This document shows positions 4,929-27,270 of a stretch of DNA of 27,270 nt, piece after piece. Under the pieces are notes generated by a model. The model saw only the letters and a program-made list of their open reading frames with translations. It made no database searches and had not been told where the DNA came from. The DNA is from a virus (taxonomy: Duplodnaviria > Caudoviricetes), in IMG/VR virus record IMGVR_UViG_3300017766_001536, positions 1 through 27,270 of that record; one strand, written 5' to 3'. Numbering within the stretch: the stretch's first letter is position 1; every line of letters begins with the position of its first letter. The position numbers and the translations under genes were made by a program.

Positions 4929-7889
4929 CTAGTTAGTTCCACCCTGCAACACCGCCAGCGCCACAGGACTTTGCAGCCGTGCAGTCGTACTCGTCAGCGT
5001 CTCGATAAACCTAGGGTGATTAATATTTACTATGATGCAATGCGCTTGCCCCGGATTACGGTTCTGGCATCCTTTAAATATAGTAACCCGTTCCCGTGGT
5101 GCAATCAAGCCACCCTTAGCTTCTAGTTCCTTGACGATACGGTCAGAGCTGTCCTTAGTTTTGTTCAGCCACTTCTTGAACGTCTGCAGGTTAATAGCCA
5201 ACTGGCTACCCGGCATCACAGGGTTATTGCTATCGTAAACGACCTTGAGTCTGGCAACAGCCCGTTCTGGTGCTGGAATGTGTACCTGCTCTTTCGACGT
5301 GCCATACACCTCAGTGACTTCGATTAGCTGATCATTGTGCTCTTGCAGGAACTGGCCAACAACGTCGAATACGTCCTGCTTATTGAACACAGTATCGTTC
5401 CTAAATTTCCTGACGTGCTCAATTAAGTACTGGGTTGTAGCATCGACATCAAACGGAAACAGGCCGAGCTTCTTACCGATCTTGCCCATCGTCCATGCAC
5501 TGATAATACCTGTGCGGTAGAAACGCTCTTGCGGCTCGAAGATGAAACCAAACTTCTCGAAGAACGCTTTCTCGCCCTTCTCCCATACAACTTTCGGCCC
5601 ACCCATGGCGATGACTGCTTCCACCAACTCAGGAAACGCCCACCCGTTATTGTTGGCAATCATGTCGAAGAACTTGTACCCATTGCTGGAACCTGTTTCA
5701 TCGGTAGTAATGAATATCCTATCGTCGTGCGGCAACTCTAGCGTACGTGCCTTGAGCGGGTCGTTATTTGTCTGCACGTTCTCAAACTTCTGGTGCATAG
5801 AGAAGTTCGATGTAATCATCGTAGGTGCAGCCCATGTAACCGGCTCACGCAACTCACGGTCTTTAGTCATCGCAATCTTCTCACGACCTTGACTCAGGTC
5901 ATACGCCAAGTCAGCAGCATCCTGATCTAGCATCGTAGTAAGCTCGTCGATTGTGCACGGCAAACTATTCAGTACCCCACGTATCTTGTACAACGAATTG
6001 GCTGTATCGTTCTTCGACATCAACAATATCTTAGGCGTACCAATCAAGCTGTTCGCAGCAAGCAACGCGAGTGTCTTACCCGTCGTAGTCTCTGGCGAGT
6101 AGATCGATACAACCATCGTAGAGTTACCTGCAACCTCACCAATGATACCGACTGTGCCTAGCAATACACCTGCACGAATAGTCTGCGTACCCGGAAGGTT
6201 TAGCATCTCCATCGCCTCAACCCACTCTGCACGTGTACCGTGTTCCTTAATGATGTTGGAGAAACGCCCTGCTGGTCCACGCAGACGACGATCGGTACTG
6301 CCTGTAGGTGAGCCTAATACTTTCTCGCCGCATAAGAACGAGCCGTCTGGTTGCCAACCAAACGCAACATAATCTAATCCCGTGGGAGTAAGGCTTTGTA
6401 CTGATGTTAAATAGTCCATTAAGTAACCTCGTAGTTTTTCTTGGTGTCCACCGCCCTTCACGCTATACACCTGTCTGTTCAACATAAACGCAGAGAAGTC
6501 TCTGCCGATCGAAGCCAGCACTGCTATCTCATGATCTTCCTCTTGCCAGCCAGTAAGCGGATACTTAATCGCTAAGCGGAATGTAGACTTAGTAGATACG
6601 TTATCTTTATAAATACCCGTGATGTGCATTGGGTACGGCGAGATCAAATCCCACTCTGTGCTTTCTACCTGTACAGCCGCGCCATTAGCATCAACACCGT
6701 CAATTGTGATCTTGATCTCTTTATAAATCTTTCCGTCTTTCTCAACGTATGGGTGTGGCAGTGTGATCTCAACCTCTTCGCCTGAATCCACAACGACAGT
6801 CGAAGTAGTGCTTGATGATAGTTGTGCAGGACTTGTAAGCTTTCCATAGTGAGGACATCCTTCGCAACCTTTGGCGCTTACTTGTTCAAATTTCTTGCAG
6901 GTAGTCGGAGGATAATCCTTCCACCCGTCAATCTTATCCATGCTTGTTTGCAGGTCAAAGTCAGGATGTTTCCCTGCCAGCATGATCACTGCAGCCTTTA
7001 CATCGGTGGCGTGTGCCGCCATACCCATACCTAGCCGCCACATCGGTTCCTTTATGAGATTACCCGCTGCGTCCGTCACTCCGCCAGAGAGTAGCATTGC
7101 TTTTATTTGCCCACAGTGTTGTGCAACGACTTCTATGTTCACTGTGTTCGAGTTCAGCACTGCTGCCAGTATCGACGATTTTGGTCTTGTCCCTCGCTGC
7201 GGTGACGAGCTTTTTGTTGCCTTTGCGAACCATGGCTTGAGTATAGTAAAAAGCTGTATCGGATCGTAATCGGGGCAGTCCTTTATACATTTAACTTCCT
7301 TCCATGGTTTTTGTTTTTTGTGGTGGGTACCGACGGGGCGTAGCACCATCGATGGGTCGTGAATCTTTGTCGTGTCAATCTGTACGTTATTCTTCTCTAA
7401 CGCTACTCGTAGTGCTGTCGATACTCTTACCCAATGCTCTTTGCTGATAGCTTCGGTTAGTGGCCAATATAAATGGATGCCGTTGCCCGATGAAATAACC
7501 ATTGGTGCTGGCATGCCAATCGCATTAAGAGCCGCTGACATAACAGTCCAACCTTCCTTCTGTGTTGCGTACGGCTTGTCTGCACCGATATCGAGATCAA
7601 GCGCGAGTGTCTTGAAGGTCTTTGCGTGTTCCTGTGTTCTAAACCATTTCTGTCGTCCATTAGCTGTGTGTGCATGGTTTGCAAATGATCCAATAGTGAA
7701 GTAAATAGTTGTGTCGTTCTCTTTATCCCATTGACTAATGTCAGCTACAGCTAGATCGAGATCGGTGTATGAGCCACGATTCCAAAAGAACCCACGCGGA
7801 TTCTTCCCTGATGGGTCAGGCTTGTGCGTACATATAACCAACTCATTTTGCTGGGCGAATACACGAGTAAGAAAGTTTTTAGTATCCAA
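4929..7889 (-). CDS. Primase-helicase: N-terminal AEP/RepB-like primase, Cys cluster, DUF927 and P-loop helicase
   Basis: ALDLD and SSGNGIHLYW primase motifs; C..CEGCPH; FGWQ..GSF (DUF927); Walker A ETTTGKT; Walker B TIDE. TTG start with AGGGG RBS. Confidence 0.8.
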   Translation of the reverse strand: MDTKNFLTRVFAQQNELVICTHKPDPSGKNPRGFFWNRGSYTDLDLAVADISQWDKENDTTIYFTIGSFANHAHTANGRQKWFRTQEHAKTFKTLALDLDIGADKPYATQKEGWTVMSAALNAIGMPAPMVISSGNGIHLYWPLTEAISKEHWVRVSTALRVALEKNNVQIDTTKIHDPSMVLRPVGTHHKKQKPWKEVKCIKDCPDYDPIQLFTILKPWFAKATKSSSPQRGTRPKSSILAAVLNSNTVNIEVVAQHCGQIKAMLLSGGVTDAAGNLIKEPMWRLGMGMAAHATDVKAAVIMLAGKHPDFDLQTSMDKIDGWKDYPPTTCKKFEQVSAKGCEGCPHYGKLTSPAQLSSSTTSTVVVDSGEEVEITLPHPYVEKDGKIYKEIKITIDGVDANGAAVQVESTEWDLISPYPMHITGIYKDNVSTKSTFRLAIKYPLTGWQEEDHEIAVLASIGRDFSAFMLNRQVYSVKGGGHQEKLRGYLMDYLTSVQSLTPTGLDYVAFGWQPDGSFLCGEKVLGSPTGSTDRRLRGPAGRFSNIIKEHGTRAEWVEAMEMLNLPGTQTIRAGVLLGTVGIIGEVAGNSTMVVSIYSPETTTGKTLALLAANSLIGTPKILLMSKNDTANSLYKIRGVLNSLPCTIDELTTMLDQDAADLAYDLSQGREKIAMTKDRELREPVTWAAPTMITSNFSMHQKFENVQTNNDPLKARTLELPHDDRIFITTDETGSSNGYKFFDMIANNNGWAFPELVEAVIAMGGPKVVWEKGEKAFFEKFGFIFEPQERFYRTGIISAWTMGKIGKKLGLFPFDVDATTQYLIEHVRKFRNDTVFNKQDVFDVVGQFLQEHNDQLIEVTEVYGTSKEQVHIPAPERAVARLKVVYDSNNPVMPGSQLAINLQTFKKWLNKTKDSSDRIVKELEAKGGLIAPRERVTIFKGCQNRNPGQAHCIIVNINHPRFIETLTSTTARLQSPVALAVLQGGTN

Positions 7890-7929: not shown

Positions 7930-7949
7930 ACGCGATAAGAGCTATTCTA

Positions 7950-8858: not shown

Positions 8859-8867
8859 AATTTTTCC

Positions 8868-9547: not shown

Positions 9548-9572
9548 ATCACTCCCCTATTTAACTGTTGAA

Positions 9573-12111: not shown

Positions 12112-12120
12112 TAGGTTCCT

Positions 12121-13968
12121 TTATTTAGCTTGACCGTAGCTCCCCCCTATGCCGGTCTCGCAAGATACAGGAATAGCATTGCGACACCACAGTGGAGCCA
12201 TGGACAAACACTCTTCCATATAAGCTCGCGCTTGAGTAAGTTCTTCGTTCTTTACTACAGATACAGCTTCATCATGCACGGACAGTTTGACTGGGTACTT
12301 CTTATTGATACGTGCAGTTTGCCACATAACGATCTTCATTGCAGCATGTTGTGATAAATTTTCTACAACTTTCGGTCCGTAGATTCTAATCCGCGATCTT
12401 CCCATTTGGTACGTCCACTCTTTCGACCGTTGATCAAACTGCAAGTCGCTATACACAACGCCCGGTTCACCCGGTCTGCCGAAGCCGTCGTTCTGCGTAA
12501 TGAACCAGCCGTTAACATCTACGTTAGTTAAATTACAACCATTGGCAATATCAGGTAGTATTACGTGCTGGCAACGATCCCACAACTGCACTACCTCGCT
12601 ATGAATCTGGCGATATAAATCCACGATGGCATGAGCGCGATTGTCGTCAATCTCTTGCACACTTGGGTCTTGCCGCGCAGCCAGCCGAACCATCTCTTTG
12701 AACCGTGGTGCTCCTGCACCGTACTGCAAACCTAGCATAGCCGTCTTGCCTAGGAACCGCTCAGCCTTGTCAGCTTTGGTAATGGTGCGGCCAAACAACT
12801 TGCTTGCAAAGTCGCAATACAAATCAACACCGTCTGCTAACTTCTGCACCACATCCCACTGCCCAGCCAGCGCCATCACAGTGCGTAGCTCGATGTTAGA
12901 CGAGTCACCAACCAACACGGTATGCCCCTCGGGAGCCATGAGTGCGTCACGTAGTCCAGCCGAGATACCACGCGCAGGTAGGTTCTGCCAGTTAACACCG
13001 TTGCCACCGGAGTATCTGCCTGTAGTCTTAGCACCCCAAAAGTTCAGGTACACCGGCAACTGCCCCCGCTTGGCCATCTCATAGAACCGCAAGGCACGAG
13101 TCTCGGCGATAGTCGTCTTAACCCCTAGCCGTGCAGCTACTAGCGCCTGTACCTCTGCGTCGTCGTGCTCAAGTAGATCGGTGAATCCTTTGTCGGACTT
13201 AGCGAAGGCATACGTTTCCTTTTCCGTCCGTGCGCTGATCTTTAGTGGCGGAGCTACGCCTAGTTGCTCTAGCCGTGCGGCAAACTTATCGTTGGACATA
13301 ATCGCATCCCGATCAATCGTAGCCAGCTGCATGAGTTCTTCTTTGCGCTTTACTTCTGCCTCGTACAGCTTGTACATCTTGTCTGCATCACCCACCAGCA
13401 CAGGTTCTGTAAACATACGAATCGTCATGTCGATCAACATCATCTCAAGCGGCGGCGTGAAGTCATCCATCCTCTTAGCAGCAAGCTGGCACAGTATCGT
13501 ATCGTGTTTGCAGTACTCGGCATACTGCGCCAACTCCAGTGGAAAGAACGTAGTTCTACGCCGACCTAACGCCTTAGTTACTTCTGTACCCTTAGCATGG
13601 AACCCGAAGTGCTTGGCCATGTTAGCCAGTGAATGTGATGGCAGGTGTGGGTACAGCATACGGAATTGTGCCAATGTATCCATCCACAGCTTAGGCTTGA
13701 TACCGAACCGCTGCGTCAATATGAAGCCGTCGAACATCGCATTGTGGCAACGTACAGCCGAGTTAGCCCAGTCAAACTTTGGCTGCCATAGCCAGTCGTG
13801 CGTTTCTTCCTCAGTACCTGAGAACCATTCAGGTTCTTCGTCGTTGATCGCAATTGATACACCAACAACTTCAAAGCGTGAATCTAGTACGTACGCATCC
13901 GTCTGCATCTTGGACAGGGAATAATCCTTGTCGTAGTACGTCTCGAAGTCAACGGTCAGTGTGTTCAT
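12121..13968 (-). CDS. polA: Family A DNA polymerase with 3'-5' exonuclease
   Basis: Exo motifs DFET and HNAMFD; TTGRYS; motif A DSSNIELR; motif B RFLGKTAMLGLQYG; motif C VHDE. Start at MNTLTV (13968) overlaps the upstream stop (ATGA). Confidence 0.93.
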   Translation of the reverse strand: MNTLTVDFETYYDKDYSLSKMQTDAYVLDSRFEVVGVSIAINDEEPEWFSGTEEETHDWLWQPKFDWANSAVRCHNAMFDGFILTQRFGIKPKLWMDTLAQFRMLYPHLPSHSLANMAKHFGFHAKGTEVTKALGRRRTTFFPLELAQYAEYCKHDTILCQLAAKRMDDFTPPLEMMLIDMTIRMFTEPVLVGDADKMYKLYEAEVKRKEELMQLATIDRDAIMSNDKFAARLEQLGVAPPLKISARTEKETYAFAKSDKGFTDLLEHDDAEVQALVAARLGVKTTIAETRALRFYEMAKRGQLPVYLNFWGAKTTGRYSGGNGVNWQNLPARGISAGLRDALMAPEGHTVLVGDSSNIELRTVMALAGQWDVVQKLADGVDLYCDFASKLFGRTITKADKAERFLGKTAMLGLQYGAGAPRFKEMVRLAARQDPSVQEIDDNRAHAIVDLYRQIHSEVVQLWDRCQHVILPDIANGCNLTNVDVNGWFITQNDGFGRPGEPGVVYSDLQFDQRSKEWTYQMGRSRIRIYGPKVVENLSQHAAMKIVMWQTARINKKYPVKLSVHDEAVSVVKNEELTQARAYMEECLSMAPLWCRNAIPVSCETGIGGSYGQAK

Positions 13969-16235: not shown

Positions 16236-16462
16236 TCCCCCTCCTTCATGTAGCTCATAAGCTCCGCGTTCATCTTGGCACGCGCCCACTTCTTGTCACC
16301 CTCCATCAGCATCAGTGCCAATGCAAACATGATGAAGTTTTGTATCTTGTCTAAATCTTCCTTGTTAACAGAACCCCGACGTATCTCGCCAATAGTACGC
16401 ATGGCCTCGCGGCGGGTATGGTCTACCGTTGCTTGCCACTCGCGGGTAGGCTCGGCTCTCAT
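16232..16462 (-). CDS. Hypothetical protein
   Basis: Overlaps both neighbours; RBS GAGG. Confidence 0.7.
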   Translation of the reverse strand: MRAEPTREWQATVDHTRREAMRTIGEIRRGSVNKEDLDKIQNFIMFALALMLMEGDKKWARAKMNAELMSYMKEGE

Positions 16463-16698
16463 TTGGACACCTCTCCTCTTTGTAGGCTATCTAAAAGCCG
16501 TTTGCTCGCTTCTTTTTTCTCTAGCTTTTCTAAACGTAGCTTAGCTGAAAGTACTAGTAGCAAAGCTCTGTTTGTACTAACATTAAATAACTTGCCTATT
16601 TCTTTGTACGTCATTCCTTGCTCACGATAGGCGATAGCAATCATTCCACGTTTATACGCAGCTTGGAATATTTCTTCCCGTGTTTTCCGTTCTTTCAT
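16459..16698 (-). CDS. Sigma70 region-4-like HTH DNA-binding protein
   Basis: REQGMTYKEIGKLFNVSTNRA; RBS AAGGAG. Confidence 0.65.
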   Translation of the reverse strand: MKERKTREEIFQAAYKRGMIAIAYREQGMTYKEIGKLFNVSTNRALLLVLSAKLRLEKLEKKEASKRLLDSLQRGEVSK

Positions 16699-16934
16699 TT
16701 GCACATCTCCTTAATTTTAGTGATGGGGATATTGGTCTGCTCATGTACGGCGATAATCATTGACGGCGGAATACGCACAAGACCGTTTCGTACCTTGCTT
16801 ATCATCGGTCTACGTGCGCCTAGGATGTGTGCCAGCTGTGCGTCAGTCTTCAGGTTGTACATCTCGCGTATGTAGTCGAACAACTTGTGCGGTTTCTGTA
16901 TTGTCCACCGCCCTGTAGTATCTTTGCTTTTCAT
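16695..16934 (-). CDS. XRE/Cro-like HTH protein (paralog 1)
   Basis: LKTDAQLAHILGARRPMISKVRNG HTH. Confidence 0.75.
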   Translation of the reverse strand: MKSKDTTGRWTIQKPHKLFDYIREMYNLKTDAQLAHILGARRPMISKVRNGLVRIPPSMIIAVHEQTNIPITKIKEMCK

Positions 16935-17185
16935 ATCAGCTCCCTTATCTCTTCAATGGTCATGTCAGTGGCATCATAGATCGCCAGAATCACACTCGCC
17001 CCAACCTTTTGTCCACCGCTACGCATCCTGCTTATGTATGCTGGCGTAGTTTCTAGCGCTTCGGCTATCTTTGCATCACTCGTAAAGCCACGCTCCAGTA
17101 GTAAGTGATCGAACAATTTGTGTGGCCTGTTGCTACGTGCTCTGCTGGTAATATCATCTTGCATCTCCGGTGCTTGGACAATCAT
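16931..17185 (-). CDS. XRE/Cro-like HTH protein (paralog 2)
   Basis: FTSDAKIAEALETTPAYISRMRSG HTH; shares PHKLFD with its neighbour. Confidence 0.75.
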   Translation of the reverse strand: MIVQAPEMQDDITSRARSNRPHKLFDHLLLERGFTSDAKIAEALETTPAYISRMRSGGQKVGASVILAIYDATDMTIEEIRELI

Positions 17186-17624: not shown

Positions 17625-17665
17625 ATTTTCCTCTGAGTAATCAAGTTAATCCCATGGGATTAAGC

Positions 17666-17962
17666 CTACATCGCTGGGTTGAAACAAATCGTTGCTACTA
17701 CTTCGCCCTTATGAACTATGTCGTAGTCCTTACCTATGTGCTTTGCACCCTTACGCACCATGTCCGTCATCAGCACCAGCATCGACCGGCCTAGTGTGGA
17801 TATGTACACAGTGCGCTCGTCGTCATCGACAGTAAGCCAGTTGCTATCGCTGTCGATGTTAACGCCTAGTTCCTCGAAACCTCGCACGAGTTTGCTTTCA
17901 ACCCGCACGAGTTTCTTGGTCAGTCGGCCAAGCTCAATCATTACTTCGCGTTGGTTTAACAT
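17666..17962 (-). CDS. Hypothetical protein
   Basis: Start MLNQREV after AGGA; stop lies 3 bp from a palindrome. Confidence 0.7.
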   Translation of the reverse strand: MLNQREVMIELGRLTKKLVRVESKLVRGFEELGVNIDSDSNWLTVDDDERTVYISTLGRSMLVLMTDMVRKGAKHIGKDYDIVHKGEVVATICFNPAM

Positions 17963-17970
17963 TGTGATTC

Positions 17971-19137
17971 CTATATAAGTTTTACTTCTACCCGCGTACC
18001 GAATGGCGCGTCGGGATGTGATCGTCCGATGTCTGCCCATATAACAGGGAAGTCCGGCTCGTTACACTCAGACAAGTTACCTTCCATGTCAGTGAAATAA
18101 ATCATGCCGCAGTAATGTTCATCTGATTCTTGCATGTGATCGAACACAGGCTTGAACCGCGTACCACCACCGCCCATTGGTTTGAGTTGCAGTAACTCAT
18201 CACGCTCGAACCTCTGCACATTGGTAACGATAGCATCGCAGTACACTACCTCAACGAACGAGGGTTGTAAGTCGTCAACGATAGCCTGAACTTCCGCAGC
18301 GATCTGATTGCACTCATTCGCCCCCATGGAACCTGATGTGTCGAAGCCAATGCACAGGCCACCTAGTGCTTCAGTACGCAGCGATGGCATATACAAACCA
18401 GCACCGATGAACCGACGCGATAGGCGTAAGTATGTATAGTCAGCTGCAGCTGATTCGGTCATCATCGAACGCGTCACGTCTTGCCAACGCACAGAGGACT
18501 TACCTACGCTATCCAGTACGCGATCGATCAGGCTTGAACCATGCCCACACTCTTTCGCCATCTTAGCTGACGTGATAATAGTCGCTTCCATATCTGCGCG
18601 TGTCGCTTCATCAACGGCATCCTCAAGGTCGCCCTTACCGTCGAAGCCCCCAGCGTTAGGTTGTGGAGTACCTTCGTCATCACCTTCGCCAGCACCTGAC
18701 TGCCCTGCGCCCGACGATTGTGGTGGCGGCGGGTCTTTCTTGAGTTTCTCATACACATACTCCGATGAATGTTCGTCACGCACCCACCGGACATCAACCC
18801 CATTGTCGGGCAGACTGTAACCACGTGAGCGAATATACGCGTTAATGATGGCGTCGTTGGCGTAGTTCCACAGCGACGGGTCACGACCTTCTCTGCGCCA
18901 CATGTGCATCAGCACGACATGGCATGACTCATGTAGCACAAGGCCGAATACCTGCTCGTCGTTCTGCTTGTCGAGAAAGTCTGAGTTGTACCAGCAATGC
19001 GTACCGTTAGTACCAGCGGTCGTCACCTTGGTGTTGTTGATCTCACGCTTGACGCGTGTCATTACCGCAGCGATGAACGGCTCACGCAGTCCTAGTTTGC
19101 TGTATGCAAGGTCGATACGTTCTTGATGTGTTGTCAT
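17971..19137 (-). CDS. DUF2201-like metallopeptidase plus VWA domain protein
   Basis: TAGTNG, LHESCHVVLMH (HExxH), WNYANDAIIN, MIDAS DTSGSM, GGGGT.F, YFTD. Confidence 0.88.
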   Translation of the reverse strand: MTTHQERIDLAYSKLGLREPFIAAVMTRVKREINNTKVTTAGTNGTHCWYNSDFLDKQNDEQVFGLVLHESCHVVLMHMWRREGRDPSLWNYANDAIINAYIRSRGYSLPDNGVDVRWVRDEHSSEYVYEKLKKDPPPPQSSGAGQSGAGEGDDEGTPQPNAGGFDGKGDLEDAVDEATRADMEATIITSAKMAKECGHGSSLIDRVLDSVGKSSVRWQDVTRSMMTESAAADYTYLRLSRRFIGAGLYMPSLRTEALGGLCIGFDTSGSMGANECNQIAAEVQAIVDDLQPSFVEVVYCDAIVTNVQRFERDELLQLKPMGGGGTRFKPVFDHMQESDEHYCGMIYFTDMEGNLSECNEPDFPVIWADIGRSHPDAPFGTRVEVKLI

Positions 19138-19180
19138 AATTATCCTAAGTAAACAAGTTAATCCCGTGGGATTAGTGCGA

Positions 19181-19453
19181 TCAGTCTAATTCTAGCGCAA
19201 CAAGTGAGTTGACGTAAAGCATTGCTTCCTCTTTCGTAGCGAAGTGCACCACGTCGTCAAACAGTCGCCGAGATACAACGAACCCACCTTGTGCATCGTA
19301 AAGACCTGATGCGTTGTATGTCGGTCGTATCGTAGCAAATAACCCACGCTGTAACACGCTGCGTAATCCAGTCTTAGTCTTGATCTGTTGGTCAATGAAA
19401 GCCATCTCTACATCATTCGATGACTCCCATTGTATGTACGGCTTGTACGGCAT
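19181..19453 (-). CDS. Hypothetical protein
   Basis: Start MPYKPY just after the ATPase stop; fills the gap before a palindrome. Confidence 0.55.
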   Translation of the reverse strand: MPYKPYIQWESSNDVEMAFIDQQIKTKTGLRSVLQRGLFATIRPTYNASGLYDAQGGFVVSRRLFDDVVHFATKEEAMLYVNSLVALELD

Positions 19454-19457
19454 GGAG

Positions 19458-20465
19458 TTACGCACGGCTAAACGCAGCCTGATTAGCGATAGCCCATTTG
19501 CTGTATGCAGCACTGCGCGTCAGCGACTTGTCACGCTTGTAAGCGAGCTTGATCGTCAGAGTCTGCACATCGCCCGGCATCTTCTCAAGGAACTTCCATG
19601 CGTTGTCGAAGTTGGTAGAGTCTAGGCGTGTAGCTAAGCCCATCGCTACGCAGTAGCGCACGTTGAGTTCCTTGGGCATCTCTACCTCGACACCGGCTAA
19701 GATGTCATCAATACGTGGCATCGTTTCCCATACACGCAGGTGCGTCTCGAATATCATCGCTGCTTCCTCGCCGATGTCACCCTTGATCTGCTCGACACGA
19801 TCTTGCTGCGGGAAATCTACGTCGAGAACGTGCGACACAGCGAACCACGAACGTGGTGTTGGGAACGCTTTGATGTCACCTGTTGGCTCGAACTTGTGCA
19901 GCATGTCAGGCCGGTCGCGCAGGAAGGACAGAATCTCTGGACGAATGTTGTTTGTGATGGCGTGATTGGTAAAGTCATCAAGCGTGGTGTTCACATCGAT
20001 GTCGCACATACGATTCTGCAGTGGTGCTGCGATGTTGTACGTAACACCTCGGTCTGTCTTGCGATTACCTGCAGCGATAACCATCCATGTGCTTGGGATA
20101 CCGTAGTCCTCTGGTGTGAGAACTAACTGATACGCCGCTGCTTGAATCGATGGTGGTGCTGATGTGATCTCGTCAAGGAACAGGATACCTGCACCGTCAG
20201 CTGGTAAGTAGTCTGGACGATTCATAACCGTGCGACCTTCTACGACTGTCGGCACACCACGCAGATCGGTTGGGTCCATCTGTGCGAGGCGCAGGTCAAC
20301 AACACCTTGCCAGTTAGGGATGTGCTCGGCAAGCAATGCACTGGTCTGAAAGACTACCTCAGACTTGCCAATACCTGACGGGCCGCGCAGAAATACAGTG
20401 CGCTTGCGAGTGTTCTCGTTCATGTAGCGTTTGACGAGGATAGGGGTGACGTGTTGGATACGCAT
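19458..20465 (-). CDS. MoxR-like AAA+ ATPase
   Basis: Walker A GPSGIGKS, D.TDLRG.P, Walker B ILFLDE, AAGNR, PTPRSW; adjacent to the VWA gene. Confidence 0.9.
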   Translation of the reverse strand: MRIQHVTPILVKRYMNENTRKRTVFLRGPSGIGKSEVVFQTSALLAEHIPNWQGVVDLRLAQMDPTDLRGVPTVVEGRTVMNRPDYLPADGAGILFLDEITSAPPSIQAAAYQLVLTPEDYGIPSTWMVIAAGNRKTDRGVTYNIAAPLQNRMCDIDVNTTLDDFTNHAITNNIRPEILSFLRDRPDMLHKFEPTGDIKAFPTPRSWFAVSHVLDVDFPQQDRVEQIKGDIGEEAAMIFETHLRVWETMPRIDDILAGVEVEMPKELNVRYCVAMGLATRLDSTNFDNAWKFLEKMPGDVQTLTIKLAYKRDKSLTRSAAYSKWAIANQAAFSRA

Positions 20466-20527
20466 GATAATTTCCTTAAAGTAAACGAGTGGTTGTGGTT
20501 GGTACTGTACTGCTTAATCCCGTGGGA

Positions 20528-20758
20528 TTAGTCCTCATTGAGAGCTAGTGATGCGTAGTCTTTCAATGTGAATACTTTCAGCGTCGGCGTGTACTCATTG
20601 TCGCGCTTGTACGTCTTGGTCTGCCAGTCATATGTTACCTGCTCGGCCTGACAAAGCAAAGCGAACACCTGCATCGCTACGTCTGTGGGCAATACTGCAC
20701 TGCGTAGGTTCTCAAGCAGTGCGTATGCTGGTATCTGTACCGTAATTTTCTCAGCCAT
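20528..20758 (-). CDS. Hypothetical protein
   Basis: RBS GGAGG; its TAA stop is part of a palindrome. Confidence 0.7.
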   Translation of the reverse strand: MAEKITVQIPAYALLENLRSAVLPTDVAMQVFALLCQAEQVTYDWQTKTYKRDNEYTPTLKVFTLKDYASLALNED

Positions 20759-21640
20759 TTAATCCTCCAGTAATGCGTTGATGGAATCTAGCAGCGCAGC
20801 TGACTGCACGTTGACCTGCATACGACGGTCAGGGTTGTCACGTAACTCTTGCGGCTTAGGTAACACATTGACAATACTATTGGCTAAATCCATCACATTG
20901 TCTGGCAGCATCTCAGCGAAGTCACGAAGCAAAGCGATTTCTTCTGCGATGTTCTCGCACACAGAGTCACGAAAGATCGGTGGCTTGATGGTCTCGATAC
21001 CTGTGCGCTTGTTGATCACTGCACGATCGTCACGTCCTGTCACATCGTGCAACTTGGCTACAACTTCCTTGAGACGTGCGAGTGGCGAGCGCAGCATCGC
21101 GTTCATCGATTCCTTGGTAGCACTCTCGACCTGTGCTTTGAGCGAGTCTAGTTCCTCTTGCTGAATCTGCACACGGAAGTCACTAGCGTCTGTCACTGGG
21201 CGATACAGTACGCGGAACCGAAAGTCTTGGCGCATCTCAGTCAGGTCAGGGTACGCATCAGCATTGAATAACGCACCTTGCGATTCTTGTGCGCGCATCA
21301 TCACATTGCTCCAGTTGTTCAGGAACGCAGTGACTGTCTGGTTAAACTCTACCTCGAACTTGCTCATGCGCTCGGCAAACTCCATGAAGCGACTAGCAGG
21401 TAGCAGGTAATCACCACGGTTCCACATATAAGTAGTGGATTCTATGTAGGCACGTGCTGCGCTTTCCACAGTGAGGATAGGCTGCACCAATGATTTGGGA
21501 TACAAGTCCTTGCGGTACTGCCCTGCACCATGTGCGTTGTTGGCAAGCTCAGCATCTGATGTTGCTTTGCTATCTTTCTGTGTCATCTGTGGTTTGTTGA
21601 CAGATAACGATACAAGCATTGCGTGGTCTTTGATAGACAT
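20759..21640 (-). CDS. DUF3150-like protein
   Basis: Helical 293-aa protein with YLLP..F, FLNNW, YP....R..F.F motifs; genes of this type commonly neighbour AAA/VWA pairs. Confidence 0.55.
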   Translation of the reverse strand: MSIKDHAMLVSLSVNKPQMTQKDSKATSDAELANNAHGAGQYRKDLYPKSLVQPILTVESAARAYIESTTYMWNRGDYLLPASRFMEFAERMSKFEVEFNQTVTAFLNNWSNVMMRAQESQGALFNADAYPDLTEMRQDFRFRVLYRPVTDASDFRVQIQQEELDSLKAQVESATKESMNAMLRSPLARLKEVVAKLHDVTGRDDRAVINKRTGIETIKPPIFRDSVCENIAEEIALLRDFAEMLPDNVMDLANSIVNVLPKPQELRDNPDRRMQVNVQSAALLDSINALLED

Positions 21641-21759
21641 AATGTTTCCTTAAAGTAAGCGAGTGGTTAATGTTAATGCTTAATCCCGTGGGATTAGTGT
21701 TGCGTTACTACTTTGCTACGACGCTTGCGCTGTACTGACGATCTCTCAGTACAGTACAT

Positions 21760-21788
21760 ATTATACCATAATACTCGTAGCTTGTCAA
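21760..21788 (-). promoter_or_regulatory. Consensus sigma70 promoter (leftward)
   Basis: TTGACA (21788-21783), 17 bp, TATAAT (21765-21760), with extended -10 TGG. Confidence 0.92.
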
Positions 21789-21803
21789 ACGAGTGGCACG
21801 AGA

Positions 21804-22409
21804 TTAAAACAACTCTCTCTGATTCTTATGCAACGCGTTGTATTTCGCGCCCTCGATACCGCAGATTAGATCGTTGATGATGAACTCTAGTTCCTCCCGC
21901 TTGTCTATGGCGAGCGACTCGATACCACCCATGCAGTCTGCGAATTCTATGTCAAGCGCACCATCCTCATCCAGCGGTGTTGCTCTCACAGTAACCCAGT
22001 GCCACTCATCGTTGTACCATCCACGCAGATAGGCGAAGTCCTGCTCGACGGCAAGCTCCGCGTCCTCGGGCTTCGTACCCCATACTTCCACCGCCCGATT
22101 AAGTGAGGCTACGAAGTCGTAGTACAGCAAAGACTTACCGTAGTACCCATGGTTGCGTTGCTCTAACCGCCTAAACAGGGGCAAGCGCATCTTGTAGTCA
22201 TCTTCTGCGTAGTCGGTAATTCTCTCAGGCCACTCATCCTCGTCCTGTGGGTCGAAGTCAAGCCACTCAAGCACACCGTGCATATGTCCAGCATCAAAGC
22301 CATCGACCGGCGAGTCGGTGCTGTCGTCATAGTGAACCTCTATCGCATACGACTTCTTTGTATGTGGGTGTGTGTAGGTCTCGCTGTGTAAAACGAATCT
22401 GTCTGCCAT
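21804..22409 (-). CDS. Acidic hypothetical early protein
   Basis: RBS GGAGG; YLRGWYNDEW...CMGGIES motif. Confidence 0.8.
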   Translation of the reverse strand: MADRFVLHSETYTHPHTKKSYAIEVHYDDSTDSPVDGFDAGHMHGVLEWLDFDPQDEDEWPERITDYAEDDYKMRLPLFRRLEQRNHGYYGKSLLYYDFVASLNRAVEVWGTKPEDAELAVEQDFAYLRGWYNDEWHWVTVRATPLDEDGALDIEFADCMGGIESLAIDKREELEFIINDLICGIEGAKYNALHKNQRELF

Positions 22410-22466
22410 GTTGTCCTCCAGTAATCAAGTTGCTTTCGCATTACAGATAATCCCATGGGATTATGG

Positions 22467-22715
22467 TTAGTGTATGTGCTGTTCTTCTCTCGTCGCTGCG
22501 AAAGCACTGAGCATATAGTCGTTGACCATGTGGGCTTGGTCGATAATATTCTCGTGAGATTCCATTGCCACCTCAACAACTAAGGTACACAGCACGGCCA
22601 TCACATTGTCTAGTTGCTTGTTATCTATTAGCGATGCAATGGCTTCAGCTAGTTCCTCCATCTCTCGCACCTCATCGCCAAATTCGTACTGCGCCTCGAT
22701 AGATCGTAGTGTCAT
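22467..22715 (-). CDS. Hypothetical protein
   Basis: Start MTLRSIE after GGGGA; stop lies 3 bp from a palindrome. Confidence 0.7.
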   Translation of the reverse strand: MTLRSIEAQYEFGDEVREMEELAEAIASLIDNKQLDNVMAVLCTLVVEVAMESHENIIDQAHMVNDYMLSAFAATREEQHIH

Positions 22716-22798
22716 AGGTATCCCCATAGGTGAAGTGCTGCTATATATACTACACATAAACCACAAAGATACAACTCTACTCCGTAGTCATTTTGCAC
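22712..22798 (-). CDS. Putative 28-aa membrane peptide (not in ORF track)
   Basis: AAGGGG RBS, GTG start, MQNDYGVELYLCGLCVVYIAALHLWGYL; TGA overlaps the next ATG. Confidence 0.45.
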   Translation of the reverse strand: MQNDYGVELYLCGLCVVYIAALHLWGYL

Positions 22799-22967
22799 TG
22801 AGTGTCCCCTTGATTTCAAGTATGGCAACTTTGGCTTGAAGCACATCTACCTGATCGTGTAGCTTCTGCTTGTCGTCACCACTATAGTCATCTACCCAGT
22901 ACTCGGCTAGGTGCAGCGCAAGCTCGATGAAGTTCAGTTGCTTTTCTGTTACCACGTAGGTTTTCAT
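22788..22967 (-). CDS. Hypothetical protein (59 aa, not in ORF track)
   Basis: RBS GGGAG; MKTYVVTEKQLNFIELALHLAEYWVDD...GTLSAK. Confidence 0.7.
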   Translation of the reverse strand: MKTYVVTEKQLNFIELALHLAEYWVDDYSGDDKQKLHDQVDVLQAKVAILEIKGTLSAK

Positions 22968-22976
22968 GTTGTCTCC

Positions 22977-23378
22977 CTAACAAAAAGATGTTGATCTATT
23001 CATGCTTATCACATCCCACACGTCGTAGTGCTCAAGTGGGTCGTGCATATCCTTTACGTAGTCGTCTTCTTCCTCACCTAGTCGTGTGTAGAACCACGCA
23101 CCGGAGTAGTTTTCCTCGACAAGTGTCATAATATTATGTTGCTCTTTCACCCAGTCGGTATCGTCGTACCACTTCACATAATCCCACGCCACATCGATGC
23201 GTATGTCGTAGTCACCATCGAACGCTCTTGTATGTACTTGCTTATTCTGCAACGCTTGAATGATGTCTTGCATCCAAGGGATGTCACCTAGTCGCAGCTG
23301 CACTTCACCCATAAACGCAGTGTAAGTTTCCTCTGTCGGCAACATAATCACGTACTTAACATCTGACATATATCCCAT
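22977..23378 (-). CDS. Hypothetical phage protein
   Basis: RBS GGAGG; MGY.SDV...WDYVKWY...RLGEE.DD conserved phage pattern. Confidence 0.8.
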   Translation of the reverse strand: MGYMSDVKYVIMLPTEETYTAFMGEVQLRLGDIPWMQDIIQALQNKQVHTRAFDGDYDIRIDVAWDYVKWYDDTDWVKEQHNIMTLVEENYSGAWFYTRLGEEEDDYVKDMHDPLEHYDVWDVISMNRSTSFC

Positions 23379-23379
23379 C

Positions 23380-23541
23380 TCACACCTCCATTTTTTCTAT
23401 TGACTCAACTTCCCAATCGGTTGCTTGTCCCAAAGAGGATAGCTCCGTCCATGCCAATTCCTCGGCGTGTTCTTCTGACTCTGCTTGCACTGTTATCACT
23501 ATGTAACTGGTACGGCGCATCTCTACTTCGTATGTTTTCAT
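23380..23541 (-). CDS. Small acidic protein (53 aa, not in ORF track)
   Basis: MKTYEVEMRRTSYIVITVQAESEEHAEELAW...MEV; GGAGG RBS, ATGA overlap. Confidence 0.75.
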   Translation of the reverse strand: MKTYEVEMRRTSYIVITVQAESEEHAEELAWTELSSLGQATDWEVESIEKMEV

Positions 23542-23915
23542 TGCAATTCCTCCGGTAGTTGTACTTCGTCGCCCATCTTTGATGCAACGTAGCAGCGCAT
23601 GGCTGCAATGAGTGGGGTTGTGCCTTGTTCTTCCCCCTGATAAATAATGTCGTAGTCATCATTTTGATATTGCATGGTTGCTACCCAAGCCAAGCTACCC
23701 ACAGGTTTTGTAACACCGATCTCTTCGCGCCCAATTATCGGCCCACCATGCGACCAGTTAAGTGTTGGCATGAAGTATTCGGTCTCGCCTGTTGACAGGG
23801 TTATGCGTAGCAGCCCCATATCATCTTGATAACCAAAGCCTAATAGTCCTTCGCACTCAGCCACTGCCCAATCAAGTGCAACGTCAATTAGCTGTGATGT
23901 TTTCATTGTTTTCAT
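23538..23915 (-). CDS. NinX / DUF2591 family protein
   Basis: LDWAVA..EG, P..NWS.GGPII, G.TPLIAAMRCYVASK.GDEV..PEEL. Confidence 0.8.
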   Translation of the reverse strand: MKTMKTSQLIDVALDWAVAECEGLLGFGYQDDMGLLRITLSTGETEYFMPTLNWSHGGPIIGREEIGVTKPVGSLAWVATMQYQNDDYDIIYQGEEQGTTPLIAAMRCYVASKMGDEVQLPEELQ

Positions 23916-23950
23916 TTTGTAATTTCCTTTAATCCCATGGGATTAGTTAG

Positions 23951-24775
23951 TTAGTTTTTCTCTAAGTCAACGATGCCGCTGATGCAAGCTCGCATCTCTT
24001 TCATGGGCATGGCAACTAGCGTCTTGTAGAACTCGCTCATCTCACTGTACTGTTTAATCTTCGCTATGCGAATTATTCTATCCATTGGCACACTGTGATC
24101 CTCATACGTCATAGGGTCGGGTACTTCATGGCTCATCATATGAACTGCGTAATCGAGTGCTGTGATGGCATGTTGAACTGCCATTGTGCGCGTCGCGTCG
24201 TGTAGCTTGGGCTTAACCGCGTGTTGCATGAAATTCACCACTTCACGCTCTACTTTCGGATATTCCACGTCATACATTCGGTTCGACGTAAAATTCTGAG
24301 TAAGGCTAAACGTATAAATCCTAGGCTCGATCGGCTCCCGCTGTTGTTGTCGTTGTTGTCCCTGCGCTTGTTCTTGTGGTCGTAGGTGTTTGCAGTATCC
24401 AGCGTATGCAGTCCTGAATAGTGATTTGTGTCTTTGGGTCGATGAACTGTAATGGTGTGCGTCAATCCACAACTCAGGCACTTTGGCATAGTCATTCCAT
24501 ACCAACATGGCAACTCGTGTCCTGTAACTTTTCCCTTGGGTCAGTGCGTAAAATACGTCACCGCTGTTGTTTATCCTGTGTTCCATTGGTACTACTGCAC
24601 TCAGGTTGGATGAGGATGAATTCAGCATACGCAATTTGTCCTTCACGTCTGCAACGATCTCAGCCGTGCGTTGTGTCTGCGAGTGCAGTGGATTCTGTGG
24701 TGTTGTCTTTAATGCACTTTCTAGTCTGTATAAGACTAGGGCGAAACGGTTCGCTACATCTGCATGGGTTGCCAT
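23951..24775 (-). CDS. Hypothetical early protein
   Basis: RBS AAGGAG; SY.T.VA...YSSSTQRH motif. Confidence 0.75.
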   Translation of the reverse strand: MATHADVANRFALVLYRLESALKTTPQNPLHSQTQRTAEIVADVKDKLRMLNSSSSNLSAVVPMEHRINNSGDVFYALTQGKSYRTRVAMLVWNDYAKVPELWIDAHHYSSSTQRHKSLFRTAYAGYCKHLRPQEQAQGQQRQQQREPIEPRIYTFSLTQNFTSNRMYDVEYPKVEREVVNFMQHAVKPKLHDATRTMAVQHAITALDYAVHMMSHEVPDPMTYEDHSVPMDRIIRIAKIKQYSEMSEFYKTLVAMPMKEMRACISGIVDLEKN

Positions 24776-24850
24776 GTTTGTTGCTCCTTGTAGTAATCGA
24801 GTGGGTGTTAATTGGTGTTGTGTTGCTTTGCTTTGCTTAATCCCGTGGGA

Positions 24851-25066
24851 TTAGGCTGTCTTGTCTTCGTCCTCTTTGTTTTGCATCGTGTCAGGGTCGA
24901 GCTGTGCATAACTGGCAGTCGCTCCAGTACCCGCTAAATGTGGCGCACGACCTTGTGCAGCAAATAAAGAACCCGCCCACAGATAACCTATGGGATGTCC
25001 GTCGCGGGTAGTTATAATAAATGCAGTCAGATTGCGGTTGCGACGATACGAATTGAAAAATTGCAT
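24851..25066 (-). CDS. Hypothetical protein
   Basis: RBS AAGGGG; TAA stop inside a palindrome. Confidence 0.7.
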   Translation of the reverse strand: MQFFNSYRRNRNLTAFIITTRDGHPIGYLWAGSLFAAQGRAPHLAGTGATASYAQLDPDTMQNKEDEDKTA

Positions 25067-25077
25067 GGTGATTCCCC

Positions 25078-25263
25078 TTAGATGAATGTGATGGTGTGCG
25101 GTTCGTCGGTAACAAGCGGGTCTGCGTCTGGATACAGATCGACCTTAGTTGGGCAGTCCTCATTGCCGTACAGGGTGAATGACTCGAACATGATGTCGGT
25201 TCGACCGCCAAGATGGGTGTTGCGTAGCCATTGGCAGTCTTCGAATGTGTTTAGAAATTTCAT
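25078..25263 (-). CDS. Hypothetical early protein
   Basis: RBS GGAG; first gene after the promoter at 25380. Confidence 0.7.
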   Translation of the reverse strand: MKFLNTFEDCQWLRNTHLGGRTDIMFESFTLYGNEDCPTKVDLYPDADPLVTDEPHTITFI

Positions 25264-25379
25264 GGTGTGCTCCGGTAAGTGATCGAGTGGCTGTCTAATC
25301 CCATGGGATTATCGGTAATGCGAAAGCATTGTGCTGCTTGTTTACTACTTTGCTACTTTTTACTACCTACTGAACAACC

Positions 25380-25408
25380 ATTATACCATATTACTACTAC
25401 GATGTCAA
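25380..25408 (-). promoter_or_regulatory. Consensus sigma70 promoter (leftward)
   Basis: TTGACA (25408-25403), 17 bp, TATAAT (25385-25380), with the same TATGGTATAAT as the 21760 promoter. Confidence 0.92.
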
Positions 25409-25495
25409 GCGAAGCATGGGTTAGAAATAGGCACAAACAACACTAGATGAGAACGATTCTTGAAAACTAATTTGACCATTTTACAAATAGGGTTG

Positions 25496-26010
25496 AATCT
25501 AAAGGTTTTGATAACATTCGCGGAAAATCTAAACACTGTATATACAGTCAGTGCTTGCAAATCATAGGATCGGGAAATTTTGTAGGATGATTTGTAGATT
25601 CTCAGAATTAGTTAGTTTAGATCGGAAATTAGTTAGATTAGATGGAAAATAGATTGGCGGAATCGGCCAAAACCCGCATGAACCCTCACTTTTAGATTAT
25701 TAGTTAGTTTTCTGAGATATGAGAGGAAACTCTTTGTAGTAATTGCAATGGCAGGGCTTGGAGGCACTTGCACAAACTACAATTTTACATTCCTCTCTTA
25801 TTTCTCCAATCTAATTAACTAACTAACTAAACAATGTGCTTGATGATGCCTGCTGCATCGCAACAATCCTGAAGAATCAATGACTTACATAATCCCATGG
25901 GATTAATATTACGTTAAAATGTAGATTAGTTTGGAAATCCTTAGATTGGCCAATCTAAATAGTGGTCACTTACGTCAAAACCCGCACCAGCACTCATTGT
26001 GTACAATCTA
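25496..26010. other. AT-rich, repeat-rich non-coding region; candidate replication origin
   Basis: No ORF of 60 aa or more; 11 copies of AATCTA/TAGATT, TAGT runs, palindromes and an IHF consensus. Confidence 0.45.
25875..25887 (+). promoter_or_regulatory. IHF consensus site
   Basis: AATCAATGACTTA matches WATCAANNNNTTR; 2 bp from the palindrome at 25890. Confidence 0.5.
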
Positions 26011-26162
26011 CAACAGTGCTCAACTCTTATATAAGACCAAAATGACAACTGCTGCAGCGCAACATGAAATTCGTAGCTCGTTCGTCGCTCGTAGCTCGTA
26101 GCTCGTAGGTCATCGCATAGTGCAAAATATTGCAGTAAGTTATCAAAACGGCAGCGCGAGCA

Positions 26163-26224
26163 TGATAGTAGTCGCGTTGGGTGATAGTAGTCGCGTTGGG
26201 GTTGGATTGTGATGATAGTAGTTA
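26163..26224 (+). repeat. TGATAGTAGT repeats (tandem TGATAGTAGTCGCGTTGGG x2 plus a third core)
   Basis: Read directly; two further cores near 27124 and 27192. Confidence 0.85.
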
Positions 26225-26244
26225 GGTTTACTCAAGGCGTGGCG

Positions 26245-26270
26245 AAAAAACCCCACTTTCGTGGGGTTTT
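26245..26270 (-). terminator. Rho-independent terminator (probably bidirectional)
   Basis: Minus strand reads AAAA-CCCCAC-GAAA-GTGGGG-TTTTTT, 10 bp after the stop at 26281. Confidence 0.9.
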
Positions 26271-26280
26271 CCTGTGAGAT

Positions 26281-26919
26281 TTATACGCCGACGATTTTCC
26301 GACCCTTGACCGCCTTGTTCAACGAAAAACCTAGCGTGATGAAGTGAGCCACGATCTTAGCGTGAAACACCGAATCGGTAATAAAACTTTCCGATTGATC
26401 AAGCCACTCTGAAAAACGATCGGTTTCGGTTTTTATCATTGGTGTCATATCTGGCGCAGGTAATGCCGTGGGATTAACGACTGGCTTTTCGGCGCGTTTC
26501 CTGCCCATGCCGTGCACTTCGCGTACTTGCTTGGCCGCTTCTCTCATTGCGTGTTTTGGCAATTCGACTGCTTTTCCTGCTGTTGTTTGCGTCTCTACTT
26601 TTTTGCCGTCAGTGCCGATTGTCTCAATACTTATCGGGCACTGTTCCGCAGCGTGCAGCGTTAGTGCGTCAACAAATAACGATTTGACATTGTGGCCTGC
26701 CGTTTTAAATTCTTCGGCATAGAGCGCGGTTACTTGTGCAATACGCGGAGCCATTGCCAATGTTGCATCTAATTGTTTTGCTGCTAATTTTGCAGCGTCT
26801 TTGCAGCAAGATAACATTGTGCTGGCCGCTTTGCCCGCGTCGAGAATCAATGTTGTCACTTCGGTTACTTTTGCCGCTGCTGGATTCACTGCTGGTACTG
26901 CTGTTGTCGAATTAGACAT
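26281..26919 (-). CDS. Hypothetical Ala/Thr/Lys-rich protein, monocistronic
   Basis: Start at MSNSTT (26919) after AAGGGG; has its own terminator. Confidence 0.8.
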   Translation of the reverse strand: MSNSTTAVPAVNPAAAKVTEVTTLILDAGKAASTMLSCCKDAAKLAAKQLDATLAMAPRIAQVTALYAEEFKTAGHNVKSLFVDALTLHAAEQCPISIETIGTDGKKVETQTTAGKAVELPKHAMREAAKQVREVHGMGRKRAEKPVVNPTALPAPDMTPMIKTETDRFSEWLDQSESFITDSVFHAKIVAHFITLGFSLNKAVKGRKIVGV

Positions 26920-27066
26920 GGAATTCCCCTTATTGAGTAAATGAGTCAAAAATGATAACTATGCAACAAAGTACGACAAATGAAACAATCGAAAAAACGA
27001 ACATGAGCCGTCCCCTTAGCAAGTCAGCAAGTGAGTTATGTGGCCGTTAACCTGTCCACGTAAATA

Positions 27067-27094
27067 ATTATACGCGCATCAAGAAAAAATGCAA
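27067..27094 (-). promoter_or_regulatory. Probable sigma70 promoter for the 26919 gene
   Basis: TTGCAT, 16 bp, TATAAT; a variant palindrome lies just upstream of the -35. Confidence 0.5.
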
Positions 27095-27209
27095 GTGATT
27101 AATCCCTGGGATTAATATTGTGATGATAGTAGTTAAGGCGATGCCATTAAATTAATTAGCTGCTTGGCAAGCCCGATGGACACGCTGGTCATGATAGTAG
27201 TGGGATGAC

Positions 27210-27257
27210 ACCCCCCTAGGGGGGTACCCGGCCCCCGACCCCCCACCCCCTCCCCCC
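27210..27257. other. C/G-tract element: palindrome ACCCCCCTAGGGGGGT and four C-runs (G4 motif on the minus strand)
   Basis: C5-GA-C6-A-C5-T-C6 at 27232-27257. Confidence 0.7.
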
Positions 27258-27270
27258 TCCTACATATCCG

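Follow-up and report, generated by a model that had tools for sequence, protein, structure and literature searches.

A dispersed 16-bp palindrome in the early region of an aquatic phage family changes in step with two residues of its likely reader, the early protein F8

What might explain why the early genes of a phage are punctuated, at one gene boundary after another, by the same 16-bp palindrome? Such an array is carried by the IMG/VR virus record IMGVR_UViG_3300017766_001536 (Duplodnaviria; Caudoviricetes), the whole of which, 27,270 bases, is the window analysed here. A first-pass annotation, made from the sequence alone, had offered three options for the array: a multi-copy operator or roadblock for a dimeric phage protein, an RNA processing or stability signal, or a recombination site that shuffles accessory genes. 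We find that the palindrome changes in step with two residues of the 212-amino acid (aa) product of the first early gene, a protein of the family that we call F8, and F8 is therefore very probably the protein that binds it. Granted binding, F8 probably represses, and we lean towards reading the palindrome as a DNA operator through which F8, as a self-limiting repressor, would throttle host RNA polymerase along the early genes.

The evidence for F8 as the reader comes from a natural variant of the site. The canonical site, TAATCCCRYGGGATTA, has A at the paired positions 3/14 (A variant); in the T variant, TATTCCCRYGGGAATA, found at the same junctions, both arms have changed to TATTCCC. The T-variant set was enlarged by a scan for the variant and a metagenome scan, and of 124 distinct F8 matches 11 were dropped (10 without the helix described below and one without a site), leaving 113. 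All nine F8 proteins from T-variant contigs have Ala (seven), Ile or Ser at position 76 together with Ser80, and 103 of the 104 from A-variant contigs have His or Asn at position 76. The switch of both arms occurred in four separate lineages, and positions 76 and 80 changed each time. On an F8 tree of 20 rows, built with columns 72-84 removed, the five T rows, which come from the lineages of four genomes (one, L316, with two paralogues), need five changes, and a single T clade is rejected (approximately unbiased test, p-AU 0.000135; 1.5e-8 for the three single-copy lineages). Among 61 conserved F8 columns, 76 and 80 are the only ones that differ in every T row from the nearest A-variant sister, where 0.004-0.013 would be expected. 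The switch is not always complete, as some T contigs (L327, L328, L382) retain a few A half-sites or sites.

Residues 76 and 80 stand at i and i+4 at the start of one predicted helix, 76-90. It is the predicted recognition helix, with residues 76 and 80 covarying with palindrome position 3/14, and the sequences suggest a code: A at 3/14 is matched by His or Asn at residue 76, and T by Ser80 together with Ala, Ser or Ile at residue 76. His or Asn is suited to contact with adenine, and a small residue leaves room for the methyl group of thymine. Tandem F8 paralogues are found in four loci (L056, L316, L310 and L303), and both L316 copies have changed at position 76 along with the sites. When loci were retrieved by the F8 protein alone, 58 of 62 had the canonical site, three had the T variant and one, with 390 bp of DNA downstream, had none. 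In roughly 100 distant F8 proteins (P0121-P0270) the beginning of the helix varies strongly; a search aimed at one very distant F8 subgroup returned no loci. A contig without a match to the core proteins of the family (L334:8001-8084) carries three T-variant 16-mers at 34-bp spacing.

In the window, the nine exact copies of TAATCCCRTGGGATTA listed by the first-pass annotation are all present (sites 3 to 11 in Table 1), as are its two variants, the one-mismatch copy inside the 212-aa gene (site 2) and the copy with intact arms and a single central base (site 1). It had missed an additional one-mismatch copy inside the primase-polymerase gene at 4929-7889 (site 12), which brings the total to 12. 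Strand-matches to the palindrome with at most three mismatches number 22 against 0.18 expected, and no more than two were found in any of 100 shuffles. All genes flanking palindromes are on the minus strand. The reported spacing to neighbouring genes was also correct: sites 11, 10, 9, 7, 6 and 5 lie 3, 6, 0, 3, 5 and 0 nucleotides (nt), respectively, from the upstream stop codon, sites 9 and 5 themselves supplying the TAA, and eight copies (sites 4 to 11) precede an ATG at the distances given in the table. Sites are found at junctions, often as the TAA stop, and the likely reason is that 16 fixed bases can be placed there cheaply.

The first-pass annotation had proposed that related phages be scanned for the motif, and there the array is conserved. 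Ten records were searched whole, of which nine are near-complete relatives (52-61 kb, 48-64% GC) and the tenth is a fragment. Each of the nine has 6-12 copies of TAATCCCRYGGGATTA, and apart from at most one copy in a replication gene all sites are in the early arm; the fragment has one, at its end. An exact-pattern scan of viral contigs found at least 240 stretches with the palindrome. F8 is present in all nine near-complete relatives, and one search returned 430 F8 homologues and another 185 clusters at 50% identity. By our own gene calls the shared layout is, in its first half, site, F8, site, strong promoter, site, variable genes and F12, and in its second half strong promoter, site, DUF3150-like gene, site, AAA ATPase gene, site, DUF2201 gene, F0, usually a site, variable genes and polymerase. 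Behind the -10 box of both strong promoters, a site follows at 35-78 nt in 20 of 20 cases (the window and nine relatives). A palindrome at +419 of the DNA polymerase gene, at the same offset in G002, G003, G007, G009, L223 and others, is not found in the window.

Is the palindrome read as duplex DNA, or as a hairpin in RNA? Site statistics were drawn from 24 records with 198 sites, 171 of them exact; loci had been retrieved with an RY-centre pattern, and whole-record searches with an NN centre gave the same picture. The centre of the exact sites is R-Y in 170 of the 171 (AC 67, AT 66, GT 29, GC 8; the remaining one is AA), a strand-symmetric set that makes the family consensus wider than that of the first-pass annotation. 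The excess of AC centres reflects flank composition, and there is no further orientation bias (p 0.59). Pairing does not extend beyond the 16-mer: the first position outside it pairs in 35 cases, where 39.8 would be expected. Mismatches concentrate at the mirror positions 5/12 (17 of 31) and 1/16 (8 of 31), not all of them independent, and a G>A excess at position 12 is largely non-independent. Intergenic sites number 158 of the 171 and 13 are inside genes; 121 of the 158 lie within 80 nt of a start, and a count by eye gave about 67 that provide a TAA stop. Of 17 regions upstream of F8, also judged by eye, about 14 have the first site ahead of the F8 promoter-like sequence, where that promoter would not transcribe it; in L055 and in one of the L056 paralogues the leader contains it. 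The symmetric centre, the lack of stem extension, the in-gene copies and the site upstream of a promoter together favour a double-stranded DNA site, and the symmetry of the site suggests that F8 may bind as a dimer.

An mRNA signal, in which F8 bound to the palindrome hairpin would block ribosome loading, as Aca2 does, or in which the hairpin would mark processing or stabilise transcripts, is rather improbable. In all eight leaders of the window the palindrome folds into a 6-bp stem capped by a 4-nt loop, the distance from its end to the ATG is 9-14 nt in many copies, and the A-to-T switch preserves pairing. Aca2 binds both DNA repeats and hairpins in 5' untranslated regions (PMC13551039), and by analogy F8 may have a second role on RNA. 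The window hairpins reach just -3.9 to -4.9 kcal/mol, however, half-switched sites that break the 3/14 pair exist, and the features that favour duplex DNA count against this explanation too; the RNA processing or stability option of the first-pass annotation is left weak. We also considered an N4-type template-strand hairpin promoter and rejected it: the scanned G003 and G006 proteins gave no Pfam match to an RNA polymerase, and host-type promoters are present.

How would F8 act on its sites? The most degenerate copy tends to be the one at the F8 promoter itself: 55 of 103 own-promoter sites are degenerate against 73 of 464 downstream sites, and in a non-redundant set 15 of 37 against 21 of 180 (p ~1e-4). 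Such an arrangement would be expected if a repressor occupied its targets before it began to limit its own production. In the proposed mechanism F8 would be made first, and would then occupy the intact sites, both those 35-78 nt past the two perfect sigma-70 promoters and those at successive gene junctions, acting there as a roadblock. It would reach the weaker site at its own promoter last and thereby cap its own level. The operator or roadblock option of the first-pass annotation is thus supported as to a phage protein, with F8 as the candidate reader in place of the helix-turn-helix (HTH) proteins that it had pointed to. The HTH genes, at 16459-17185, were rejected as the reader because they are patchy among relatives, the family concerned (F45, 16695-17185) being found in only one of the nine near-complete relatives.

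A number of observations weigh against F8 as reader and repressor. The exceptional A-variant protein, in L387, has Ala76 and Ala80 yet keeps the A site, and Ser80 occurs in 25 A-variant proteins, that of the window included, so that neither residue alone predicts the site. The column test applied to other early proteins, a weak test with only 2-3 T lineages and distant sisters, returned 8 of 151 columns in F4, 4 of 250 in F2 and 12 of 209 in F1, and none in F0 and F14; F4, F2 and F1 are therefore still formally eligible as readers. F8 has no Pfam or PHROG family, no sequence match in the PDB and no recognisable HTH. As to repression, no palindrome overlaps either strong promoter. The DNA polymerase, exonuclease and helicase genes each lack a strong sigma-70-type promoter, and four sites stand between them and P2. 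A tight roadblock would therefore deprive replication of these products, which means that any repression has to be incomplete or to set in late. In a close strain, RNA-library contigs cross three site positions, but contigs do not show transcripts; cover is lacking over 25230-27270, which counts as no evidence.

That a host protein or another phage protein reads the palindrome, and that the F8 covariation is coincidental, is highly unlikely. The near invariance of the palindrome across very diverged phages and the weakness of the control on other proteins would suit such a reader, but the site has switched in four lineages with changes at the same two F8 positions each time, the HTH family is patchy, and the palindrome plus leader pattern was found in one contig among 185,579 species genomes, the examined part of which consists entirely of phage genes.

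The predicted model of F8 has a helical N-terminal domain, a linker and a small C-terminal domain, with a predicted local distance difference test score (pLDDT) of 81 for the whole and 94 for the N-terminal domain. Foldseek found no match for either the whole model or the N-terminal domain, and the best VIA-align hits (Z 7.1) are unrelated helical bundles, which show neither a known nor a new fold. Two neighbours named by ESM Atlas, DUF3102 (0.83) and phiC31 repressor c (0.82), fall short of 0.9 and serve only as leads. For the latter, an analogy may be drawn with the phiC31 'conserved inverted repeat'; a literature search gave nothing usable.

Could F8 instead switch genes on? Activation or antitermination, in which site-bound F8 would create middle transcripts or extend them towards the replication genes, is given little credence. 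On the minus strand from 21788 to 10057 there is no promoter with at least 10 of 12 matches, and a leader motif described below stands before 41 of the 63 genes behind a site and before 21 of the remaining 312 early or middle genes. An activator nevertheless fits poorly, because the spacing of sites to promoters varies, from 35-78 nt downstream of the strong promoters to about 1-15 nt upstream of the F8 -35 box, and because many sites end 9-14 nt from the ATG, without room for a -10 box and start site.

It is also unlikely that F8 binds the sites chiefly to handle DNA. Like a centromere-binding protein, it would then clamp or bridge the 10-15 kb that enter first and serve as an entry ratchet, a condensing scaffold or a tether. 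Sites every 0.5-1.5 kb over an arm at the genome end, with non-coding and in-gene copies and no overlap with strong promoters, would suit such a role, as would replication genes that rely on read-through. The authors of the Cluster O mycobacteriophage study argued for a role other than control of initiation for a similar array (PMC4351075). Against DNA handling, Pfam scans of 31, 51 and 133 proteins (the last with one protein per family, 95-1000 aa) gave no ParA- or ParB-like match, and first entry of the early arm into the cell is an assumption. The site after both strong promoters in every case and the weakest site at the F8 promoter both suit regulation.

The recombination option fares poorly when gene order is compared. 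That the palindrome shuffles accessory cassettes, in the manner of integrons or of the PeSL (promoter early stem-loop) elements of T4-like phages, we regard as very improbable. Site-plus-gene units (F23, F38 and others) are present or absent behind the promoter-proximal site, and close strains lack the first gene behind a site: one is without the NinX-like gene, and another appears to be without the 61-aa gene behind site 4. The joint in the former, the clearest loss, is at the ribosome-binding site beside site 6, however, and not between two palindromes, and close-strain joints with sides of 31-33 nt between leaders are indistinguishable from assembly breaks. Core gene order is identical in the window and all nine relatives. 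Across 12 records a site stands ahead of 43 of 102 core-gene junctions against 42 of 254 accessory junctions, and in the most variable stretch at only 6 of 143 accessory junctions. Nucleotide alignments between related genomes end at sites in few cases and mostly elsewhere (a comparison without statistics), and the same three Pfam scans gave no match to an integrase or tyrosine recombinase. The fixed core order and the few sites in the most variable region make a shuffling cassette unlikely, and cassette shuffling is not supported as the main role. The expectation that gene gain, loss and order would break exactly at the motif holds for some gains and losses right behind a site, and fails for the core order, which is invariant. 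Unit loss is better explained as a side effect of short repeats and strong leaders than as PeSL-type shuffling.

A bolder version of the repressor reading can be put forward, although we consider it doubtful. F8 would be a sequence-specific DNA binder of new fold with a two-residue code, the stoperator-like master switch of a widespread, integrase-free family. It would silence the whole early arm, allow a dormant carrier state without integration and shut out superinfecting kin, and the repeated TAAT-to-TATT switches would be escapes into new immunity groups.

Table 1. Sites, promoters, leader motifs and F8 features in the window (minus-strand features marked -).
Feature	Coordinates	Strand	Remarks
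Site 1	27100..27114	.	arms intact, one central base; just upstream of putative promoter of 212-aa gene; likely weakest operator
Putative promoter of 212-aa gene (F8)	27067..27094	-	perfect TATAAT, poor -35, 5 nt from site 1; by eye, not scanner-called
Leader motif	26937..26946	-	directly before F8 Shine-Dalgarno
First early gene, family F8	26281..26919	-	212 aa; likely palindrome-binding protein
F8 codons 76 (His) to 80 (Ser)	26680..26694	-	start of predicted helix 76-90
Site 2	26461..26476	.	one mismatch; inside F8 gene
Site 3	25890..25905	.	non-coding DNA, no start codon nearby
Promoter P1	25380..25408	-	perfect sigma-70-type, 12/12, extended -10
Site 4	25296..25311	.	68 nt downstream of P1 -10 box; 32 nt before ATG
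Leader motif	25279..25288	-	before 25263
Site 5	24838..24853	.	supplies TAA of 25066-24851; 62 nt before 274-aa gene
Leader motif	24793..24802	-	before 24775
Site 6	23930..23945	.	14 nt before NinX-like gene
Site 7	22448..22463	.	38 nt before 201-aa gene
Leader motif	22421..22430	-	before 22409
Promoter P2	21760..21788	-	perfect sigma-70-type, 12/12, extended -10
Site 8	21681..21696	.	63 nt downstream of P2 -10 box; 40 nt before DUF3150-like gene
Leader motif	21655..21664	-	before 21640
Site 9	20515..20530	.	supplies TAA of 20758-20528; 49 nt before AAA ATPase gene
Leader motif	20481..20490	-	before 20465
Site 10	19159..19174	.	21 nt before DUF2201 metallopeptidase/VWA gene
Leader motif	19149..19158	-	before 19137; abuts site 10
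Site 11	17647..17662	.	last early site; 22 nt before 74-aa gene
Leader motif	17637..17646	-	before 17624; abuts site 11
Site 12	6375..6390	.	one mismatch; inside primase-polymerase/DUF927 gene

The leader motif of Table 1 is a second, directional element, ACTYRHTYAC, which stands ahead of the Shine-Dalgarno sequence. Besides the palindrome-led genes it occurs before 7 of 10 F8 genes; among late genes, 4 of 306 have it. It probably enhances the translation of genes that translational coupling does not reach, and may resemble the leader of T7 gene 10. Another directional repeat, CTACTATCA on the minus strand, has five copies around F8 (26163-26221, 27124-27132 and 27192-27200). Its 8-mer core has 4-7 copies in eight of nine relatives, mostly in the same region and often directly ahead of the first two palindromes, and it may be a packaging or origin signal or the site of a second protein. 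At 27200-27270 the record finishes in G/C runs, at a CGGATAT word that is also found ahead of G-runs in several relatives; this may be a physical genome end or packaging site, and the Rhizobium phage RHph_TM3_14A has a comparable G-rich stretch.

The window as a whole comprises a replication module (primase-polymerase, helicase, exonuclease and family A polymerase) and the early arm, both on the minus strand, along with the end of a virion gene. The virion-type protein, at 44-4219, is large and has an ADP-ribosyltransferase (ART-PolyVal) domain; the version in relatives has 1,900-2,400 aa. A conserved module at 17971-21640 consists of a DUF3150-like gene, a MoxR-type AAA ATPase and a DUF2201 metallopeptidase/VWA gene, with a palindrome ahead of each of the three. 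The small gene at 8868-9152 (and L235:16593-17090) has a longer family member in G005 with N4 gp49-like and Tad2-like (Thoeris anti-defence) domains.

Where does the family live, and does it integrate? At least half of the words of the window are present in 16 sequencing runs from fresh, lake, estuarine and unspecified aquatic sources, one or two of which may be the source sample. The absence of an integrase, ParA or ParB match in the Pfam scans and the single phage-gene contig among 185,579 species genomes make the family look non-integrating. One family contig, L223 (JBBAPZ010000024.1), is in a bin labelled Candidatus Sericytochromatia; since the 20 kb examined are all phage genes, it may be mis-binned or a weak hint of a host. 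Among cultured phages there was no nucleotide match for window positions 4929-12900, and a search of 50,697 phage records for F8 found none. Judged by capsid (43%) and polymerase (35%), RHph_TM3_14A is the nearest cultured phage. In its first 40 kb, and in 44 kb of KPP25, no F8 was found by hidden Markov model, and the palindrome was not among the most repeated inverted repeats; the first early protein of RHph_TM3_14A gave no alignment with F8 (probability 0.3%). RHph_TM3_14A (L431, MN988472.1, 1-40000) has the same ATPase-metallopeptidase-polymerase order as the window, is without F8, and has a dispersed palindrome of its own, GTTACC-N6-GGTAAC, with 12 perfect copies in 40 kb and 29 with at most one mismatch, late genes included. 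A related design could be examined in culture with this phage. A literature search, with subscription journals outside its coverage, found no paper on the TAATCCC/GGGATTA motif in phages.

Close parallels are found in mycobacteriophages. The 17-bp palindrome array of Cluster O, TGTTCGGNNNCCGAACA, likewise has invariant 7-bp arms and many copies between and inside genes without orientation, in an apparently non-temperate phage with a predicted dimeric binder and occasional deletions between copies (PMC4351075). It differs in sequence, in its 3-bp spacer and in its 34 copies spread genome-wide and not tied to starts, and no reader is named for it (PMC4351075). The present sites have a 2-bp centre and 6-12 copies in the early arm, mostly near starts when intergenic, with a reader indicated by covariation. 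The Cluster A stoperators, read by L5 Rep, share with our sites one phage protein with many dispersed sites mostly away from promoters (PMC6550527, PMC4351075), as well as a site near the regulator's own gene, specificity that diverges between relatives and a proposed block to elongation (PMC6550527). Stoperators are asymmetric, oriented and present in 20-30 copies, and the phages that encode Rep, an HTH protein, are temperate and have integrase or parABS (PMC6550527). Here the site is symmetric, no HTH or fold match was found for F8, and the scans revealed no integrase or partition gene. F8 returned no sequence or fold match to any family, although absence from a list of matches is compatible with a remote relation to L5 Rep.

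The Aca repressors are also phage proteins that curb strong early expression through inverted repeats and regulate themselves, but most are HTH proteins with sites within core promoters (PMC9410906), and Aca2 binds mRNA hairpins that include motifs between genes (PMC13551039). In contrast, the sites here are spread over about 10 kb, most of them at gene junctions or 35-78 nt past a promoter, and only the F8 site abuts a -35 region. F8 has no Pfam or PHROG match and its scanned neighbours include no acr name; no Aca-specific profiles were run. In Cluster K, the start-associated sequence (SAS) and extended SAS (ESAS) elements place an inverted repeat upstream of a directional start-associated motif, with a repeat consensus that differs between subclusters (PMC3203893), much as palindrome, ACTYRHTYAC leader and Shine-Dalgarno sequence follow one another here. 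The SAS is a 13-bp asymmetric motif, GGGATAGGAGCCC, that includes the Shine-Dalgarno sequence, and the ESAS has imperfect 17-bp arms, a variable spacer of 4-13 bp and no known reader (PMC3203893), unlike the perfect 7-bp arms and fixed 2-bp centre of our site.

PeSL elements too recur in variable early regions close to strong sigma-70 promoters, and genes next to them are gained and lost, but each consists of a promoter and a terminator stem-loop, and shuffling is driven by recombination between the units, which yields mini-circles (PMC2839356). Here a strong promoter precedes only two of the 12 sites, the hairpin has little stability, sites favour core genes, and a terminator-like call was made at a single window site, on the non-coding strand. 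Integron attC arrays are defined by an integron integrase and reordered cassettes, whereas here the scans gave no tyrosine recombinase match and core order is invariant. A ParB/parS-type centromere has a ParB-family binder with a ParA partner; its 16-bp dyad layout is similar, but here there is neither a ParA or ParB match in Pfam nor a fold match.

The Cluster O palindromes and the Cluster K ESAS stayed unexplained because no reader was known. In the present family natural variation names a reader and two specificity residues, and this makes the system testable in E. coli with synthetic DNA, though no member has been cultured. If F8 binds as predicted, it would represent a DNA-binding family without a recognisable fold and a source of ready-made orthogonal protein-operator pairs, and would reveal how very strong early promoters are controlled in a widespread aquatic phage family that appears to be lytic. 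The array would work like stoperators or the Cluster O array and belong to neither; what would be new is a reader family of no recognised fold, pointed out by repeated covariation.

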